Source of the DNA: Gammaproteobacteria bacterium
Lineage (GTDB): Bacteria > Pseudomonadota > Gammaproteobacteria > UBA4575
Assembly (NCBI GenBank): GCA_965242685.1
Contig: OZ251487.1
Span: 93,591 to 157,590 of the forward strand
Length of the DNA: 64,000 bases
Direction of reading: 5' to 3'
The position numbers and the translations under genes were made by a program. The notes below the pieces were generated by a model that was not told the origin of the DNA, ran no database searches, and was given only the letters and a program-made list of their open reading frames with translations. How positions within the stretch are numbered: the stretch's first letter is position 1; the number at the start of each line of letters is the position of its first letter. This document shows positions 3,940 through 44,314 of this stretch, in pieces.

Positions 3940-5352
3940 TTAAGGGGCTACCGGAGCATCTCTGTGATTTTCACATGGTTCTTTTTGTTTTGCGTGGTGA
4001 CTGGTTTGGTGCGGGCGGTTTCTTCTCTCATGGGAAGGCGGTATCGCCATGGATTCACGATACTTGGCAATGGTACGCCGTGCGACACAGATACCTTTTT
4101 GTTCAAGCAGCATGGCGATCTTATTGTCGCTTAAGGGTTTGAGGTGGTTTTCTTCCTTGATCAAGCCGCCGATTATGGCCTTGACCGCCGTGGCGGAGCG
4201 CACGCCTCCGTCATGCGTATTGACGTGGCTAGAAAAGAAGTATTTGAACTCGAAGGTACCTCGCGGACAGTCCATATATTTATTGGTGGTTGCCCTGGAA
4301 ATAGTGGATTCGTGCATGTCCAGTTCTTCGGCGACATCTCTTAAAACCAGGGGGCGCATCGCTGCCTCGCCATATTCAAGAAAGTTTCTTTGGTGCCTGA
4401 CGATGGACGTTGCAACTTTCAGCAGGGTCTCATTACGATTTTGTAGGCTTTTTATGAACCAGCGTGCCTCCTGTAGTTGATGACGCACGTAATCGCGTTC
4501 ACTGTCCTTGTCAGAGTTTTTGAGTAACCCGTAATAGACGTCATTTATGCGTAGCCTGGGTGTGTTTTTACCATTCAGTGTTACTCTCCATGTGTCCTTA
4601 TGTTTGTGTACGTAGACGTCCGGAATAATGTATTCGGGTTTTTGCACGTTGACCAAGTCGCCGGGTTTGGGGTACAACGATTGAATCAGTATGACCGCGC
4701 CTTCAATTTCCGTACTGGAAAATCCGGTGGACTTCATCAGTTTAAGATAGTTTTTGCTACCGACAACGTCCAGATGCCCGGCCACGATCAGGCGCGCCGC
4801 GGAAAGAAAGGGTGTATCTTCGGGCAGTTGCTGAAGTTGAATCTCCAAGCATTCCCGCAGGCAGCGTGCCCCGCAGCCAACCGGATCGAAGTGCTGTATG
4901 AATTTGAGGACGGCGGCAATCTCGTTCAACTCAAGCGCCATGGTGTGGTTCGCGTTCAGATTTTGCCGGATGTCTTCAAGTGGTTCCTGCAAATAACCCG
5001 ATTCGTCCAGGGCGTTGATCAGGACCGTTGCCACTACGTAGTCGCGCTCGGATAATGAACTCAATTCCAACTGCCGCAACAAGTGTTGTTCCAAAGAGTC
5101 CGGTTTGGCGCTGTCCTGTTTTTCCAGCCAACCTAAGCGATCCTCGTTTTGACTCCTCTGTGACGACGGGGGCGGATAATCCGCTTCGTGGTCTTCATAG
5201 GCCTCCAGCATGGGATTGGATTCAAAGGCCTCCCGAATTTCGGTCTTGAGTTCCAGGGACGATAGCTGTAGCAGGCGAATCGCCAGGCGCAACTGCCTCG
5301 TCATGGTCAATTGCTGACTTAAACGGGCTTGTAATGCGGGCTTTAACAGCAT
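3940..5352 (-). CDS. rpoN: RNA polymerase sigma-54 factor
   Basis: 470 aa. N-terminus LSQQLTMTRQLRLAIRLLQLSSLELKTEIREAFESNP and a C-terminal RpoN box (ARRTIAKYRE). Confidence 0.95.
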   Translation of the reverse strand: MLLKPALQARLSQQLTMTRQLRLAIRLLQLSSLELKTEIREAFESNPMLEAYEDHEADYPPPSSQRSQNEDRLGWLEKQDSAKPDSLEQHLLRQLELSSLSERDYVVATVLINALDESGYLQEPLEDIRQNLNANHTMALELNEIAAVLKFIQHFDPVGCGARCLRECLEIQLQQLPEDTPFLSAARLIVAGHLDVVGSKNYLKLMKSTGFSSTEIEGAVILIQSLYPKPGDLVNVQKPEYIIPDVYVHKHKDTWRVTLNGKNTPRLRINDVYYGLLKNSDKDSERDYVRHQLQEARWFIKSLQNRNETLLKVATSIVRHQRNFLEYGEAAMRPLVLRDVAEELDMHESTISRATTNKYMDCPRGTFEFKYFFSSHVNTHDGGVRSATAVKAIIGGLIKEENHLKPLSDNKIAMLLEQKGICVARRTIAKYRESMAIPPSHERRNRPHQTSHHAKQKEPCENHRDAPVAP

Positions 5353-33688: not shown

Positions 33689-34324
33689 ATGGCCTTACCG
33701 GTAAATCGTCGCCCCGGCATGACGCTATTCTCGGACCCGCGTTGTGCGCAGAGCCACCGCACGCGGATCGTCCTGGCGGAAAAAGACATCGTCGTTGAAA
33801 TTATCGACGTCGACCACCGCGACAAACCGCGCGAACTCCTCGACATCAATCCGTACCACTCGGTACCCACCCTGATTGATCGCGACCTGGTCCTTTATGA
33901 CGCCCACGTCATCATGGAATATCTGGACGAACGCTTCCCGCACCCGCCGTTGATGCCGGTGGATCCGGTATCCCGTTCCAAGTCTCGGCTGGCGTTGTTT
34001 CACGTCGAAAAAGACTGGTACACCTCGTTGGAGACCTTACGTTTTGGCAGCAAGAGAGCCGCCGCCGCCGCCAACAAAAAGCTTCAGAAAGACATACTTG
34101 ACGCCACCGAATTATTCAAGGTGCAGCCGTACTTTCTCAACGACGACTTTAGCCTGGTGGATTGCAGCATCGCGCCGATCCTCTGGCGGCTGCCGGGCCT
34201 CAACATAAAAATGAGCAAACCGATCATGGAATACGCCCGGCGCGTATTCGGGCGCGCCTCCTTCAAGGCCAGCCTATCCGACCAGGAGGTTGAAATGTGG
34301 CCGTCCGGCTCGTCGTCGGCATAG
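33689..34324 (+). CDS. sspA: stringent starvation protein A (GST-like)
   Basis: Collinear with E. coli SspA (MTLFS..IVLAEK....PTLIDR..IMEYLDERFPHPPLMP). Confidence 0.9.
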   Translation: MALPVNRRPGMTLFSDPRCAQSHRTRIVLAEKDIVVEIIDVDHRDKPRELLDINPYHSVPTLIDRDLVLYDAHVIMEYLDERFPHPPLMPVDPVSRSKSRLALFHVEKDWYTSLETLRFGSKRAAAAANKKLQKDILDATELFKVQPYFLNDDFSLVDCSIAPILWRLPGLNIKMSKPIMEYARRVFGRASFKASLSDQEVEMWPSGSSSA

Positions 34325-34346: not shown

Positions 34347-34748
34347 ATGACCTCCAGCCGTCCCTACCTGATCCGCGCCATCTACCAATGGATCGTCGAC
34401 AACGGCATGACCCCGCACCTCCTCGTCGCCGCCGACAGCGACCGCGTCCAGGTGCCGCGACAATCTATCGAGGAGGGCAGGATCATCCTCAACATCGGCC
34501 CCGATGCGGTACGCTCCCTGGAGCTGGGCGATGACGAGATAAACTTTGATGCCCGCTTCGGCGGTGCGTCCATGCGAGTCCGCGCCCCCGTCGAACACGT
34601 CCTGGCCATCTATGCCCGCGAAAATGGCCAAGGGATGGCATTTGCCGAACAAACCAAACCCGTGCCGGCATCGAAAGACCTACCCGAAGCACCCGCATCC
34701 GCCGAGGCCCCTAAACCCAAACGCACGCACCTGCGCGTCATCAAATGA
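34347..34748 (+). CDS. sspB: stringent starvation protein B (ClpXP adaptor)
   Basis: Start at MTSSRPYLIRAIYQWIVDNGMTPHLLV, matching the SspB N-terminus. Confidence 0.8.
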   Translation: MTSSRPYLIRAIYQWIVDNGMTPHLLVAADSDRVQVPRQSIEEGRIILNIGPDAVRSLELGDDEINFDARFGGASMRVRAPVEHVLAIYARENGQGMAFAEQTKPVPASKDLPEAPASAEAPKPKRTHLRVIK

Positions 34749-36421
34749 AAAAGCTCATGTCATTGCTGCGTTTTTGGCGGCGCCCACGTTCTGCGCGGGA
34801 TATGGATACTGATTTTCAGGCAGCTTTTGCGGCATATCAACGCGACGACTACGCTACCGCCTTACGTGGATTTCGTCCGCTTGCCGAACAGGGACATGCC
34901 GGAGCCCAGCATAGTCTGGGATTCATGTGGTGCGCGTACCGGCACGTACCAGATGATGGTGTGGGACATGCCGGAGCCCAGCATAGTCTGGGATTCATGT
35001 ACTACTATGGACATGGTGTTGCCCAGGACTCTGAGGAGGCCGTGTCCTGGTTTCGCAAGGCCGCCGAACAAGGATTGGCCGCCGCCCAATTTATTCTGGG
35101 CACCTTGTACGAAGGAGGAAAAAAGGGCGTTGGCCGGGACTCCGCGCAGGCTATGTCCTGGTATCGCAAGGCCGCCAACCAGGGAAATGTCCAAGCCCAG
35201 TTTTTTCTGGGAGACATGTACCGCGAAGGAAGGGGCGTTGCCCGGGACTCCGCGCAGGCCATGTCCTGGTATCATAAGGCCGCCGACCAGGGATATGCCA
35301 AAGCCCAGGCTCTTCTGGGACTCGGGTACTACAACGGAGAGGGCGTTGCCCGGGACTCCGCACAGGCCGTGTCCTGGTGGCGCAAGGCCGCCGAGCAGGG
35401 AGATGACAGAGCCCAGTTTTCTCTGGGAAACATGTACCACGAAGGAGAGGGCGTTCCCCGGGACTCCGAGGAGGCCGTGTCCTGGTATCGCCAGGCCGCC
35501 GACCAGGGAAATGTCCAAGCCCAGTTTAATTTGGGATCTATATACTACAAAGGAGAGGGCGTTGCCCAGGACTTCCAACAGGCCATGTCCTGGTATCGTA
35601 AGGCCGCCGACCAGGGAATTACCAAAGCCCAGGCCCTTCTGGGAGTCATGTACGCCAAAGGCGAGGGCGTTGCCCAGGATCTCATACAAGCCTACGCCTG
35701 GTTTGATCTCGCCGCCGCACAAGGCGATGAAAACGCGAAGAGACTCCGGGACATGGTAAAGAAACGCATGACGCCGGCACAGCTTACCGAAGCCCAAAAG
35801 GGCGTTGCCCGGGACTCCACGCAGGCTATGTCCTGGTATCATAAGGCCGCCGACCAAGGAGATGCCAATGCCCAGTATAGTCTGGGAGCCATGTACTACG
35901 AAGGAAAGGGCGTTGCCCAGGACTATGAGCAGGCCGTATCCTGGTATCGCCAGGCCGCTGACCAAGGATTGGCCATCGCCCAGTTTAATCTGGGAGTCAT
36001 GTACTACCATGGACAGGGCGTTGCCCGGGATTACGCGCAGGCCGTGTCCTGGTATCGTAAGGCCGCCGAGCAGGGACATGCCGCCGCCCAGTATAGTCTG
36101 GGAGCTATGTACTACGAAGGAAAGGGCGTTGACCGGGACTTCGGGAAGACCATGTCCTGGTATCGCAAAGCTGCCGCACAGGGATTTGCCCTTGCCCAGT
36201 CTAATCTGGGAGTCATGTACGCCATGGGAGAGGGCGTTGCCCGGGATCTCGTACAGGCCTACGCCTGGTTTGATCTCGCCGCCGCGCAAGGCCATGAAAA
36301 AGCGAGGGAAGACCGGGACTTGATAAAGCAAACCATGACATCGGCCCAGCTTGCCGAAGCCCAGTACCTCAGCCGCGGCCTGGCGGCGCAGATTTCCCCG
36401 AATGAAAATCCGAAACCATAA
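34745..36421 (+). CDS. Sel1-like repeat (SLR/TPR-like) protein; appears to be an in-frame fusion of two paralogous units
   Basis: 558 aa of ~36-aa AQxxLGxMYxxGxGVxxDxxxAxxWYRKAAxQG repeats. Internal tail motif RLRDMVKKRMTPAQLTEAQK marks a junction. No signal peptide. Confidence 0.8.
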   Translation: MKKLMSLLRFWRRPRSARDMDTDFQAAFAAYQRDDYATALRGFRPLAEQGHAGAQHSLGFMWCAYRHVPDDGVGHAGAQHSLGFMYYYGHGVAQDSEEAVSWFRKAAEQGLAAAQFILGTLYEGGKKGVGRDSAQAMSWYRKAANQGNVQAQFFLGDMYREGRGVARDSAQAMSWYHKAADQGYAKAQALLGLGYYNGEGVARDSAQAVSWWRKAAEQGDDRAQFSLGNMYHEGEGVPRDSEEAVSWYRQAADQGNVQAQFNLGSIYYKGEGVAQDFQQAMSWYRKAADQGITKAQALLGVMYAKGEGVAQDLIQAYAWFDLAAAQGDENAKRLRDMVKKRMTPAQLTEAQKGVARDSTQAMSWYHKAADQGDANAQYSLGAMYYEGKGVAQDYEQAVSWYRQAADQGLAIAQFNLGVMYYHGQGVARDYAQAVSWYRKAAEQGHAAAQYSLGAMYYEGKGVDRDFGKTMSWYRKAAAQGFALAQSNLGVMYAMGEGVARDLVQAYAWFDLAAAQGHEKAREDRDLIKQTMTSAQLAEAQYLSRGLAAQISPNENPKP

Positions 36422-36475
36422 TTTCAGCCGCGACCTGGCGGTGAAGATCTCCTCGAATGAATACCTGGAGATAAA

Positions 36476-37540
36476 ATGGAAATAAGAATACCTATGAAAA
36501 CAGCCTTAAATACCTTATATGCAGCCGTCATCGCCGTGTCTTTGTCGGTGCCCGTATCGGCGGCAGACTTTGATGCGGCGGTGGAGGCCTACGAACGAGG
36601 CGACTACGCCACCGCCTTACGCGAATTCCGTCCGCTTGCCGAACAGGGATTGGCCGAGGCTCAGCTTGAACTGGGAAACATGTACCACGAAGGAAAGGGC
36701 GTTGAGAAGGACTACGAGGAGGCCGTGTCTTGGTATCGTAAGGCCGCCGAACAGGGAAATGCCTACGCCCAGTATAATCTGGGCCTCATGTACTACAAAG
36801 GAGAGGGCGTTGCCCAGGACTACGCGCAGGCCGTGTCCTGGTATCGCAAGGCCGCCGAGCAGGGAGATGCCGCCGCCCAGTATAATCTGGGATTCATGTA
36901 CGCCACAGGCGAGGGCGTTGCCCGGGACTACGCGCAGGCCGTGTCCTGGGTTCGCAAGGCCGCCGAGCAGGGAGATGCCGCCGCCCAGCATATACTGGGA
37001 TACATGTACCAACATGGCAAGGGCGTTACCCGGGACTACAAGGAGGCCGTATCCTGGTATCGCCAGGCCGCCGCACAGGGATTGGCCAAAGCCCAGTCTT
37101 TTCTGGGAGTCATGTACTACTTTGGACAGGGTGTTGACCGGGACTACGAGGAGGCCGCGTCTTGGTATCTCAAGGCCGCCAAACAGGGACATGCCGATGC
37201 CCAGTTTTATCTGGGCCTCATGTACGCCAAAGGCGAGGGCGTTGCCAAGGATCCCCGACAAGCGGTGTTCTGGTATCGCCAGGCCGCCGACCAGGGATTG
37301 GCCAAAGCCCAGTTTACTCTGGGATATATGTACTTCATAGGCGAGGGCGTTGCCAAGGACTACGTACAGGCCTACGCCTGGGTTCATCTCGCCGCCGCGC
37401 AAGGCCATGAATACGCGAAGGAACTCCAGGACATGGTAAAGCAAGCCATGACGTCGGCACAGCTTGCCGACGGCCAGCAACTTAGCCGCGAACTGGCGGC
37501 GAAAATTTCCCGAATGAATACCCGAACCCCCCATGATTGA
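36476..37540 (+). CDS. Sel1-like repeat protein with signal peptide
   Basis: 354 aa. Signal peptide [18 protein letters not shown]. Confidence 0.8.
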
Positions 37541-38027
37541 AGTCCTACAGACCGACATCACCGCACTGAAGATCGACGCCATCGTCAATGCCGCCAACTC
37601 CAGCCTGCTCGGCGGCGGCGGTGTGGACGGTGCCATCCACCGCGCCGCCGGCCCCGAACTCCTGGCGTTCAACAAAACCCTGGGAGGCTGCCAAACCGGC
37701 CACGCCAAACTATCGCCCGGCTTCAAACTCGCGGCAAGATGGATCCTCCACACCGTCGGCCCGGTATGGCAGGGCGGCGATGCCGGCGAACCCGAACTGC
37801 TGCAAAGCTGCTACCGCCGCTGCCTGGAACTGGCGCACTCCAAAGGCGCAAAATCCATCGCCTTTCCCGCCATCAGCACCGGCGTGTACGGCTACCCCAA
37901 AGAGGCCGCCGCCGAAATTGCCGTTCGCTGTATGAAAGAATACCAACCGAAATTTGAACGCATCGTCGCCTGCTGTTTCAGTGAGGCGGACGCCGCCCGC
38001 TATCGGCGATTACTGGCCGCCGGCTAG
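37533..38027 (+). CDS. macro-domain protein (ADP-ribose / O-acetyl-ADP-ribose binding or deacetylase, YmdB-like)
   Basis: 164 aa. [24 protein letters not shown] motif. Overlaps the upstream Sel1 gene by 8 nt. Confidence 0.8.
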
Positions 38028-38033
38028 GCTTAC

Positions 38034-38101
38034 CCGCGATTCAAAATATTGCTGGATCGAACTGCCGCTTGATCGCCCGCATCAGCTCTGGCGGAACCGG
38101 C
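38034..38101. repeat. displaced duplicate of the glcD 3-prime end (about 80% identical to 38455-38523)
   Basis: Compare cgattcaaaatattgctggatcgaactgccgcttgatcgcccgcatcagctctggcggaaccgg with ggattcaaaatatcgttgggatcaaactgccccttgatcttccgcatcagctccagcgtaaccgg. Confidence 0.7.
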
Positions 38102-38262
38102 GCCCCCCTGTTTACGGTAGATTCAGGCTTAAAATCGAATAAGATACTAAAATCGACCCCCCTGTTTACGGTAGATTCGGCCTAAAATCAAATAAGGTGC
38201 CCAAAATCGACCTCCCTGTTTACGGGTAAATTCAGGCCTAAAATCGAATAAGGCACTTAAAA
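38100..38262. repeat. 3 x ~56-bp tandem repeat (cccctgtttacggtagattcaggcYtaaaatcRaataag...aaaatcgacc)
   Basis: Direct inspection. Confidence 0.8.
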
Positions 38263-43617: not shown

Positions 43618-44047
43618 CCGGGAGTTGGCCAGGCAGTCGCTTCCCCGCTTGTGGGCACACGGGACGGGGAAGAGGAAAGTCCGGGCTTTTTGGGCGAGGC
43701 GCCAGGTAATGCCTGGAGGACGTGAGTTCATGGAAAGTGCAACAGAAAGTAAACCGCCCGACCACCCGGTACAACAGTCAGCCTCGTTTTTTGTAAAATC
43801 ACGTAAGGCTGATTGAAGGGACGGTCGGGTAAGGGTGAAATGGTGTGGTAAGAGCACACCGCTCAACCGGTAACGGTTGTGGCTAGGTAAACCCCGCCTA
43901 AAGCAAGACCAAATAGGGGAGTACGGAACTATGTTCCGGCACATGGCCCGTGTGGGCTCCCGGGTAGGTCGCTTGAGGTTTGTGGTGACACAAATCCCAG
44001 ATGAATGACTGCCCCCGACAGAACCCGGCTTATCGGCCGACTCCCGG
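43618..44047 (+). ncRNA. rnpB: RNase P RNA, bacterial type A
   Basis: Conserved blocks GGAAAGTCCGGGCT, AGGGTGAAATGGTGTGGTAAGAGCACACC, CCAAATAGGGGAGTACGG and ACAGAACCCGGCTTATCGGCC. Terminal P1 pairing ccgggagttggcc/ggccgactcccgg. Confidence 0.85.
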
Positions 44048-44314
44048 CCTATATGAATGCTGACTGTCCCCCTTAGTTATCCATCAACCTGACCGAAATC
44101 CATCAGCCTGACCCAAAGGACAAGGTCAAGGCACACTTGATTAATAAAACAAGTAAATAGCGCGATATTTTTAATGTAAAAAATAATATTATTTATTTAA
44201 CTATATAAATAGAAAAAGATATTATTTGTTTTTACATGGCCTCAGATATGGAATATCAAGGCCATGATCCTTCCGAAATCCTACATATTTTCTGGTTTTT
44301 CCCTTGAATTTTGC

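Follow-up and report, generated by a model that had tools for sequence, protein, structure and literature searches.

Do two neighbouring genes for Sel1-like repeat (SLR) proteins and the macro-domain gene that overlaps the second of them form a functional unit, or does their proximity have another origin? The question is raised by a locus on contig OZ251487.1 (GenBank assembly GCA_965242685.1) of an uncultured environmental gammaproteobacterium, analyzed here within a window of 64,000 nucleotides (nt) that spans positions 93,591 to 157,590 of the forward strand of the contig; all coordinates are those of the window unless a relative is named. We find it likely that the two Sel1 genes represent a lineage-specific tandem SLR gene array, inserted between sspB and ymdB in a conserved petABC-sspA-sspB-ymdB cluster and reshaped by illegitimate and unequal recombination among its 108-nt repeats. 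If so, the adjacency of the Sel1 and macro-domain genes would reflect the landing site of the array rather than functional pairing.

The plus-strand gene order is petB, the cytochrome c1 gene, sspA, sspB, Sel1 gene 1, Sel1 gene 2 and the macro-domain gene, downstream of which a gene for a GlcD-like flavin adenine dinucleotide oxidase, a diaA/gmhA-like gene, yraN and lpoA lie on the minus strand. The genes central to the analysis are the following.

33689-34324, plus strand: sspA
34347..34748 (start approximate), plus strand: sspB, encoding the ClpXP adaptor (Pfam SspB, E-value 5e-32)
34745-36421, plus strand: Sel1 gene 1, 558 amino acids (aa), 12 Sel1 repeats in two modules, signal peptide absent
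36476-37540, plus strand: Sel1 gene 2, 354 aa, 7 repeats between an N-terminal cap and a tail, signal peptide present
37533-38027, plus strand: predicted ymdB-type macro-domain gene (O-acetyl-ADP-ribose deacetylase), 164 aa, from NCBIfam NF001664 and E. coli YmdB (5cb3)

Pfam recognizes 12 Sel1 repeats in gene 1 (E-value 9e-120) and 7 in gene 2 (E-value 1e-81), both proteins scoring far above the PF08238 cut-off for SLR membership (387 and 267 bits, respectively, versus 30.7), and the product of the third gene matches the Pfam Macro domain (E-value 7e-46). The boundaries of all three genes are as proposed in a first-pass annotation of the same DNA.

Gene order around sspB and ymdB in related genomes

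The array lies between sspB and ymdB only in the close relatives of the window. Five more distant relatives (L087, L088, L089, L114 and L115; approximately 73-74% identity of the macro protein) share the petABC-sspA-sspB order, with the macro-domain gene following sspB directly, either through an ATGA overlap (L114 and L115) or after a gap of 15-18 nt, and without a Sel1 gene. Thus, the position of the macro-domain gene appears to predate the insertion of the Sel1 genes. In 2 other relatives, L010 and L113, the macro-domain gene adjoins a BON-diaA-yraN-lpoA cluster.

Among the relatives carrying Sel1 genes, L084 is represented by a 1.76-Mb contig (SspB 74% identical over 133 aligned codons, macro protein 89% identical) with the order petABC-sspA-sspB-SelA(409 aa)-SelB(341 aa)-macro-glcD-diaA-yraN-lpoA, the last 4 genes being on the minus strand; the 2 Sel1 genes are referred to below as L084 genes A and B. 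The short contigs L082, L083 and L081 (macro identity of 98%, 91% and 86%, respectively) each have a Sel1 tail immediately upstream of the macro-domain gene and all break inside the Sel1 repeats, and on the L086 and L085 contigs (SspB 90% and 84% identical) a Sel1 gene begins at an ATGA overlap with the sspB stop. The simplest reading of this distribution is that the array was inserted in the ancestor of the clade comprising the window and L084. A wider survey of sspB neighbourhoods, covering the 79 GTDB sspB loci with any BLAST match, revealed no Sel1 gene downstream of sspB (0/79), the gene found there being diaA in 14 loci. Exact-protein look-ups of gene 1 and of the macro protein retrieved no record, and a homology search with gene 1 yielded only generic long Sel1 proteins with at most 57% identity, which are uninformative on orthologs and on the two-module architecture.

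The sspB-ymdB adjacency was recorded, as an ATGA overlap or a 15-18 nt gap, at positions 5001-5004 of both L114 and L115, 7985-8001 of L087 and 5188-5207 of L089. The hosts are uncultured gammaproteobacteria, one of them, from a hydrothermal-vent metagenome, being named as Chromatiales by its source. The arrangement suggests that sspA-sspB-ymdB may constitute a conserved transcription unit; we know of no earlier description of such a unit.

Identity of the macro-domain gene and its pairing with the Sel1 genes

The macro protein scores above the NCBIfam NF001664 equivalog cut-off for O-acetyl-ADP-ribose deacetylase (221.6 versus 200 bits). Its best solved relative is E. coli YmdB (PDB 5cb3, E-value 6e-48), with residues 2-162 aligned, and in the alignment the NAAN…glycine-rich loop and the ISTGVYG motif are identical to those of YmdB. 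Hundreds of gammaproteobacterial proteins are approximately 70-74% identical to it, several of them named O-acetyl-ADP-ribose deacetylase by their sources. By these matches, the gene is assigned to the YmdB-type O-acetyl-ADP-ribose deacetylases. It resembles the E. coli YmdB/MacroD-type deacetylases (PDB 5cb3 and 1spv) in aligning over its full length and in its conserved loops, but unlike E. coli ymdB, the gene here and in the relatives is found after sspAB or beside the diaA cluster.

The first-pass annotation had taken the pairing of secreted Sel1 proteins with an ADP-ribose-processing macro domain as a hint of a function in host interaction or linked to ADP-ribosylation. A functional module of this kind, active in ADP-ribosylation signalling or host interaction, would account for the shared orientation, tight spacing and overlap of the genes, and for an adjacency kept in the close relatives L081-L084. 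The proposed link does not withstand the comparison with more distant genomes, however: the macro-domain gene is a YmdB equivalog that stands beside sspB without a Sel1 gene in L087-L089, L114 and L115, and beside diaA in L010 and L113. Furthermore, the macro protein matched none of the PADLOC defence-system models, DarG-type included, and instead of a macro antitoxin or defence pairing such as DarTG, its neighbours are the Sel1 genes and the GlcD-like oxidase. No ADP-ribosyltransferase was seen near the locus and no other Sel1 gene in the rest of the 64-kb window, the annotated neighbours of the L084 array are housekeeping genes, and the overlap between gene 2 and the macro-domain gene is restricted to the window strain. 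We regard a functional module of the Sel1 proteins and the macro enzyme as highly improbable. Under the insertion proposed here, the locus would be a cautionary case, in that tight, same-strand and even overlapping neighbours can arise when genes are inserted into an operon that was already there, and gene order in somewhat more distant relatives quickly settles the question of shared function.

The overlap itself (ATGATTGA) measures 8 nt, and in the relatives a TAA stop is found 6-21 nt ahead of the macro ATG. It arises at the following feature.

37505..37522, plus strand: end of the gene 2 tail, with a 1-nt deletion and a TAA-to-TAC change relative to six homologous tails

As a result of these 2 changes, the open reading frame (ORF) reads into the macro start. 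An explanation of the overlap purely by the 1-nt deletion was dropped, given that with the TAA-to-TAC change the undeleted frame also ends in an ATGA overlap with the macro start.

A tail alteration of another kind was observed in L084 gene B, in which one extra T within a T-run just before the tail (12674-12700 of L084) shortens the gene and a normal tail is restored if the T is removed; this may be a long-read homopolymer error or a real frameshift.

Elsewhere the genes are also tightly packed, with a 4-nt overlap (ATGA) between sspB and gene 1 and a gap of 54 nt between genes 1 and 2, and promoter and terminator scans found signals between the genes no more often than in shuffled sequence, which neither proves nor disproves an operon. 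With this packing and no signal above chance, co-transcription of gene 1, gene 2 and the macro-domain gene is plausible, although it says little on function. Thus, of the earlier observation that the macro-domain gene overlaps gene 2, with co-transcription suggested, the overlap is confirmed and the co-transcription is plausible only.

Two modules and a separate insertion in gene 1

For the analysis of architecture, the proteins were cut in a 36-aa register, the DNA repeat unit being 108 nt. Gene 1 starts with an N-terminal cap, followed by an interrupted first half-repeat and seven repeats, the seventh of which is the family terminal repeat with a tail stopping at AQLTEAQ (aa 351, nt 35797). 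Five more repeats follow from KGVARDS (aa 352), with a complete tail at the end (…AQLAEAQYLSRGLAAQISPNENPKP). The features within the gene are, in order, the following.

34891..34928, plus strand: first copy of a 38-bp repeat (GHAGAQHSLGFM)
34929..34962, plus strand: filler of 34 nt, source not found elsewhere in the window
34963..35000, plus strand: second copy of the 38-bp repeat
35663..35797, plus strand: terminal repeat and truncated tail of module 1a (aa 307-351), from the repeat register and tail alignment
35789..35809, plus strand: in-frame junction of tail and repeat start (GAAGCCCA followed directly by AAAGGGCGTTGCC), non-homologous positions joined
35798..36421, plus strand: module 1b (aa 352-558), five repeats and the complete tail

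The ends joined at the module junction (35797/35798) share at most 1 nt of sequence, and a metagenome scan for this fusion junction gave 0 matches. Gene 1 had been described as containing two complete Sel1 units with tails. Two modules, each with a terminal repeat and a tail, are indeed present, but the second, which opens at a repeat boundary midway through the architecture, is thus not a complete gene copy.

The exact 38-bp duplication (34891-34928 and 34963-35000) is in frame with an offset of 72 nt, such that one copy plus the 34-nt filler, which has no match elsewhere in the window on either strand, makes up an in-frame insertion of 72 nt (24 codons) in the first repeat. The insertion is not present in L085 or L084. 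The duplication had been noted before with a length of 37 bp; it is real, yet 38 bp long and with the second copy located 2 nt further left. Other exact repeats in the array, 26-37 nt in length, all keep to the 108-nt register. An offset of 72 nt does not, which marks the duplication as an event separate from the register repeats, and probably a recent one.

A tandem-duplication junction between genes 1 and 2

The 3' end of gene 1 and the gap that follows are made up of 2 elements.

36398..36423, plus strand: copy of the Sel1-to-macro spacer with a degenerate macro start (CCATAATT, from CCATGATT), which supplies the last codons and the stop of gene 1
36424..36465, plus strand: non-coding remnant ('scar') of the 3' part of a Sel1 tail

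The former (CCGAATGAAAATCCGAAACCATAATT) is a copy of the spacer preceding the macro-domain gene in L082 and L083, with 24 of 26 positions matching the L082 spacer and macro start when read by eye, and with ATGATT of the macro start changed to ATAATT. The latter is identical to the gene 1 tail at 33 of 38 positions (36424-36461), which bears out the copy of the gene 1 tail after its stop reported in the first-pass annotation. Downstream of the remnant, the sequence is alignable to the intergenic region between L084 genes A and B, up to the start of gene 2. In L084, the tail-to-macro region of gene B is collinear with window positions 36368-36461 over approximately 95 nt, across the junction CCAT(G/A)ATTTCAGC. 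These alignments show that the junction, in which a tail is followed by the spacer, 6 nt from the start of ymdB and the 3' portion of another tail, has the structure left by a tandem duplication with ends in a Sel1 tail and 6 nt into ymdB. The same junction being found in two diverged genomes, it is old and not an assembly error. A scan for the junction pattern returned 23 matches, none of which has Sel1 or macro homology, and these were attributed to chance.

Loss of the export signal in gene 1

The presence of an export signal was judged by Kyte-Doolittle hydropathy, as the best mean over 11 residues within the first 40 residues. This value is 0.36 for gene 1, in which a hydrophobic N-terminal core is absent, and 2.32 for gene 2, the N-terminus of which has by hydropathy and sequence the n-h-c arrangement typical of Sec-type signals, with the end at VSA/AD, in agreement with the signal peptide assigned earlier to gene 2 and denied to gene 1. 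A candidate twin-arginine translocation signal (RRPRSAR) was rejected by eye, as a hydrophobic region does not follow. The 2 corresponding regions are the following.

34759..34809, plus strand: relic of the signal-peptide coding sequence of gene 1, from the 5' DNA alignment and three-frame translations; the other frame reads VIAAFLAAPTFCAGYGY*, homologous to the gene 2 signal
36476-36562, plus strand: predicted signal peptide of gene 2 (aa 1-29)

Three-frame translations give HVIAAFLAAPTFCAGYGY* for the ancestral frame of the relic in the window and HVIAASLSVPTVAAGWGY* in L084 gene A, with the ancestral VIAxSLSVP…A core out of frame in both genes. The translated frame of gene 1 through the relic reads MSLLRFWRRPRSARDMD and is back in the Sel1 frame at TDFQAA. 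This comparison shows the export signal of gene 1 as lost via a compensated frameshift common to L084 gene A and, as it is present in both genomes, old. A further 27 nt of the N-terminal part are deleted in the window relative to L084, whereas in L085 the whole signal region has been removed by a clean in-frame deletion. The signal has thus been removed with the frame kept in at least 2 ways, by the compensated frameshift and 27-nt deletion in the window and by the clean deletion in L085. All these changes at the 5' end leave the ORF open and the ATGA coupling to sspB intact, the overlap between the sspB stop and the start of the first Sel1 gene being found in four genomes (the window, L084, L085 and L086).

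L084 gene A (10435-11664 of L084) was also observed to contain an internal duplication in the N-terminal cap (DFQAAGAAYARGG … IDFQAAVAARTRGG).

How gene 1 arose

Taken together, these features support a history of duplication, fusion and deletion for the array, as read from its sequences. In the scenario that we favor, ymdB would have been preceded in an ancestor by three Sel1 genes, A, B1 and B2. The two-module gene 1 would then result from an in-frame deletion in the window lineage that fused A, cut within its tail after AQLTEAQ, with B1 from one of its internal repeats onward, and gene 2 would correspond to B2. In the L084 lineage, B2 would instead have disappeared when tails recombined with each other. 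The latest event would be the insertion of 72 nt associated with the perfect 38-bp repeat.

Several observations weigh against this scenario. Only a single long syntenic relative carrying the array, L084, was found. Repeat-by-repeat and tail-by-tail identities range from 69 to 88%, with no clear one-to-one orthology between the window modules and L084 genes A and B, so that the three-gene ancestor and the order of events rest on inference. The nearest counterpart of module 1b is, by a narrow margin, module 1a (81.0% over 567 collinear nt, compared with 79.4% to gene 2 and 77.8-78.8% to the L084 genes), and two of the longest exact matches, 29 nt each, occur at an offset of 567 nt. Gene fusion would account for the likeness of the 2 modules no better than an internal duplication.

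Gene 1 may accordingly be a single gene in which a block of 567 nt, beginning with repeat 3 and ending at AQLTEAQ of the tail, was duplicated in tandem. Counted from repeat 3 to the tail, module 1a is exactly as long as module 1b (189 aa) and likewise has five repeats, the collinear identity of the two is the highest of all comparisons, and repeat 1 of 1b and repeat 3 of 1a share the unusual SWYHKAADQG motif (85%), in addition to the pair of 29-nt matches at the matching offset. However, the lead over gene 2 comes to approximately 9 of 567 nt, too little for significance where background values are 72-88%, and an extra event would be needed, since gene 1 begins in the manner of L084 gene A, with the shared frameshift, and ends with the junction that follows L084 gene B. 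With an A-type 5' end and a B-type 3' end, gene 1 is chimeric in any case. We view internal duplication as a possible but doubtful origin. The paralog fusion suggested at first thus stands as part of a history of duplication, fusion and deletion, while for gene 1 itself it is one of two readings that the data do not separate.

It might be argued that the two-module gene, the 72-nt insertion or both are artefacts of assembly, produced by collapsed repeats or a chimeric join. The sequence here is highly repetitive, the short-read metagenome contigs of the relatives all break within it, and searches of public collections retrieved neither the gene 1 protein in exact form nor the junction sequence. 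Nevertheless, a collapse joins homologous positions, whereas the two sides of the junction here, a tail and a repeat start, have no more than 1 nt in common; the repeats are no more than 88% identical, with 37 nt as the longest in-register exact match; and the duplication junction and the frameshifted N-terminus are reproduced in the independent assembly of L084, with all joins in frame. We therefore consider an assembly artefact highly unlikely.

The window paralogs are slightly more alike (78-81%) than their counterparts in L084 (75-79%), which suggests gene conversion or independent duplications. When the window is compared with L084, the ratio of nonsynonymous to synonymous substitution rates (dN/dS) is 0.74-0.76 in the Sel1 genes, against 0.15 in sspA, 0.31 in sspB and 0.22 in the macro-domain gene, these being rough values, as the repeat alignments may not be strictly orthologous. 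By this estimate, the Sel1 genes are fast-evolving at the protein level.

The high dN/dS of gene 1 (0.76) could also be taken to indicate a decaying pseudogene, the open frame of which is a by-product of repeat composition. The lost signal peptide, the disruptive 24-aa insertion in the first repeat and the truncated internal tail would be consistent with decay, as would the presence in the array of other-frame and antisense ORFs of 310-489 aa. By contrast, every change is frame-keeping, including the double frameshift, the 27-nt deletion, the 72-nt insertion, the module junction and the L085 deletion, all 12 repeats of gene 1 still match Pfam Sel1, and its dN/dS is no higher than that of the signal-bearing gene 2 (0.74). 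On balance, we find it unlikely that gene 1 is a pseudogene.

Two compositional features of the array were noted. The GC content at third codon positions is 0.64-0.67 in the Sel1 genes (34745-37540) and 0.75-0.77 in sspA, sspB, the macro-domain gene and petB, a difference that could be explained either by acquisition of the array from a foreign source or by codon usage imposed by the repeats. Long extra ORFs over the array, at 34827-35759 (plus strand, 310 aa), 34862-36331 (minus strand, 489 aa) and 36617-37753 (minus strand, 378 aa), most likely result from the repeat composition alone, and gene callers could be misled by them.

Comparison with known SLR systems and predicted functions

By gene content and variability, the locus falls within a known kind, the variable tandem SLR arrays. 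In Haemophilus influenzae, the SlrV/Msf genes form tandem SLR arrays of variable copy number between core genes. They have signal peptides and share a conserved C-terminal motif, and the absence of clustering by gene among their repeats is a sign of duplication, contraction and recombination (PMC4792463). The locus described here similarly has tandem SLR genes between core genes, gene and repeat numbers that vary between genomes, a signal peptide, a family-specific C-terminal motif and repeats that do not cluster by gene. The variation is evident from the two-module gene and second gene of the window, the two single-module genes of L084 and the lack of any in L087-L089, L114 and L115. Unlike SlrV/Msf, which belong to a host-restricted pathogen, the array resides in an uncultured environmental gammaproteobacterium, and its first gene lacks a signal peptide, so that not every member carries one, and holds two modules. 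The SlrV/Msf C-terminal motif comprises 22 aa, and the likeness to the tail here lies in the presence of a family motif. Two modest particulars set the locus apart: the signal peptide of its first gene has apparently been silenced through a compensated frameshift, and a duplication junction has been preserved together with the first bases of the downstream gene. It represents a small, well-resolved example of the evolution of repeat-protein paralog arrays, with non-coding junction remnants and in-frame rearrangements, and has no bearing on a long-standing open question.

The 36-aa helix-turn-helix repeat is shared with solved SLR proteins, namely 6ok3 ('Sel1 repeat protein'), E. coli EsiB/c5321 (4bwr) and Helicobacter pylori HcpC (1ouv), which match gene 2 with E-values of 1e-107 to 1e-36 and are exported interaction scaffolds. 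This likeness is carried by the generic repeat consensus (best database identity at most 57%), and the Hcp-type cysteine pattern is absent here. Among the NCBIfam families of periplasmic SLR proteins (MerG, AlgK, ExoR and MotX), the MerG model also aligns over the terminal repeat and tail, with scores of 269.6 bits for gene 1 and 161 bits for gene 2, far below its cut-off of 350, and AlgK, ExoR and MotX score far lower; neither protein thus belongs to any of these families. PADLOC matches of the Sel1 proteins to PtuA, which cover short repeat-like stretches only, were disregarded.

A single-sequence AlphaFold model of gene 1 had a mean predicted local distance difference test score of 44.5, too poor to use, and the alpha/alpha superhelical solenoid fold of the Sel1 proteins is inferred only from sequence matches to the solved SLR structures. 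Judged by family analogy only, gene 2 most likely encodes a Sec-exported periplasmic SLR solenoid that would bind a protein partner, and gene 1 most likely a non-exported two-module SLR protein, the translation of which would be coupled to that of sspB. As for ymdB, it is most likely an independent housekeeping hydrolase of ADP-ribose derivatives, which would be transcribed from the sspA promoter through the insertion.

Removal of the signal in two ways, with the ATGA coupling kept in four genomes, raises the idea that the sspB-proximal paralog could be a new cytoplasmic scaffold, repurposed and tied to the stringent-starvation and ClpXP-adaptor pathway of SspA/SspB, with the two-module form as a further step. 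We put this forward as a speculation with little chance of being correct; if the non-exported paralog is functional, it would be an example of an exported scaffold relocated to the cytoplasm.

Other features of the window

The intergenic region between the macro-domain gene and glcD contains, at 38103-38253, a 54-bp tandem repeat of 2.8 copies with 87% matches that is not present elsewhere in the window. The same region of L084, otherwise well conserved, has one copy only of the 54-bp unit, and the repeat would thus be a copy-number-variable minisatellite. Just past the macro stop, a segment on the minus strand (38041-38094) that is near-identical in L084 translates as PELMRAIKRQFDPAIF* and is similar to the C-terminal end of the GlcD-like oxidase (LELMRKIKGQFDPNDILNPGK). 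The oxidase gene probably once had its 3' end here, of which this segment would be a remnant, displaced by an insertion containing the 54-bp repeat. In L089, the oxidase gene ends right at the macro-domain gene.

No tRNA genes were detected within the 64-kb window. A class A RNase P RNA (Rfam RF00010, 324.6 bits) is located at 43621-44048 on the plus strand, between rsmI and mraZ in a syntenic layout.

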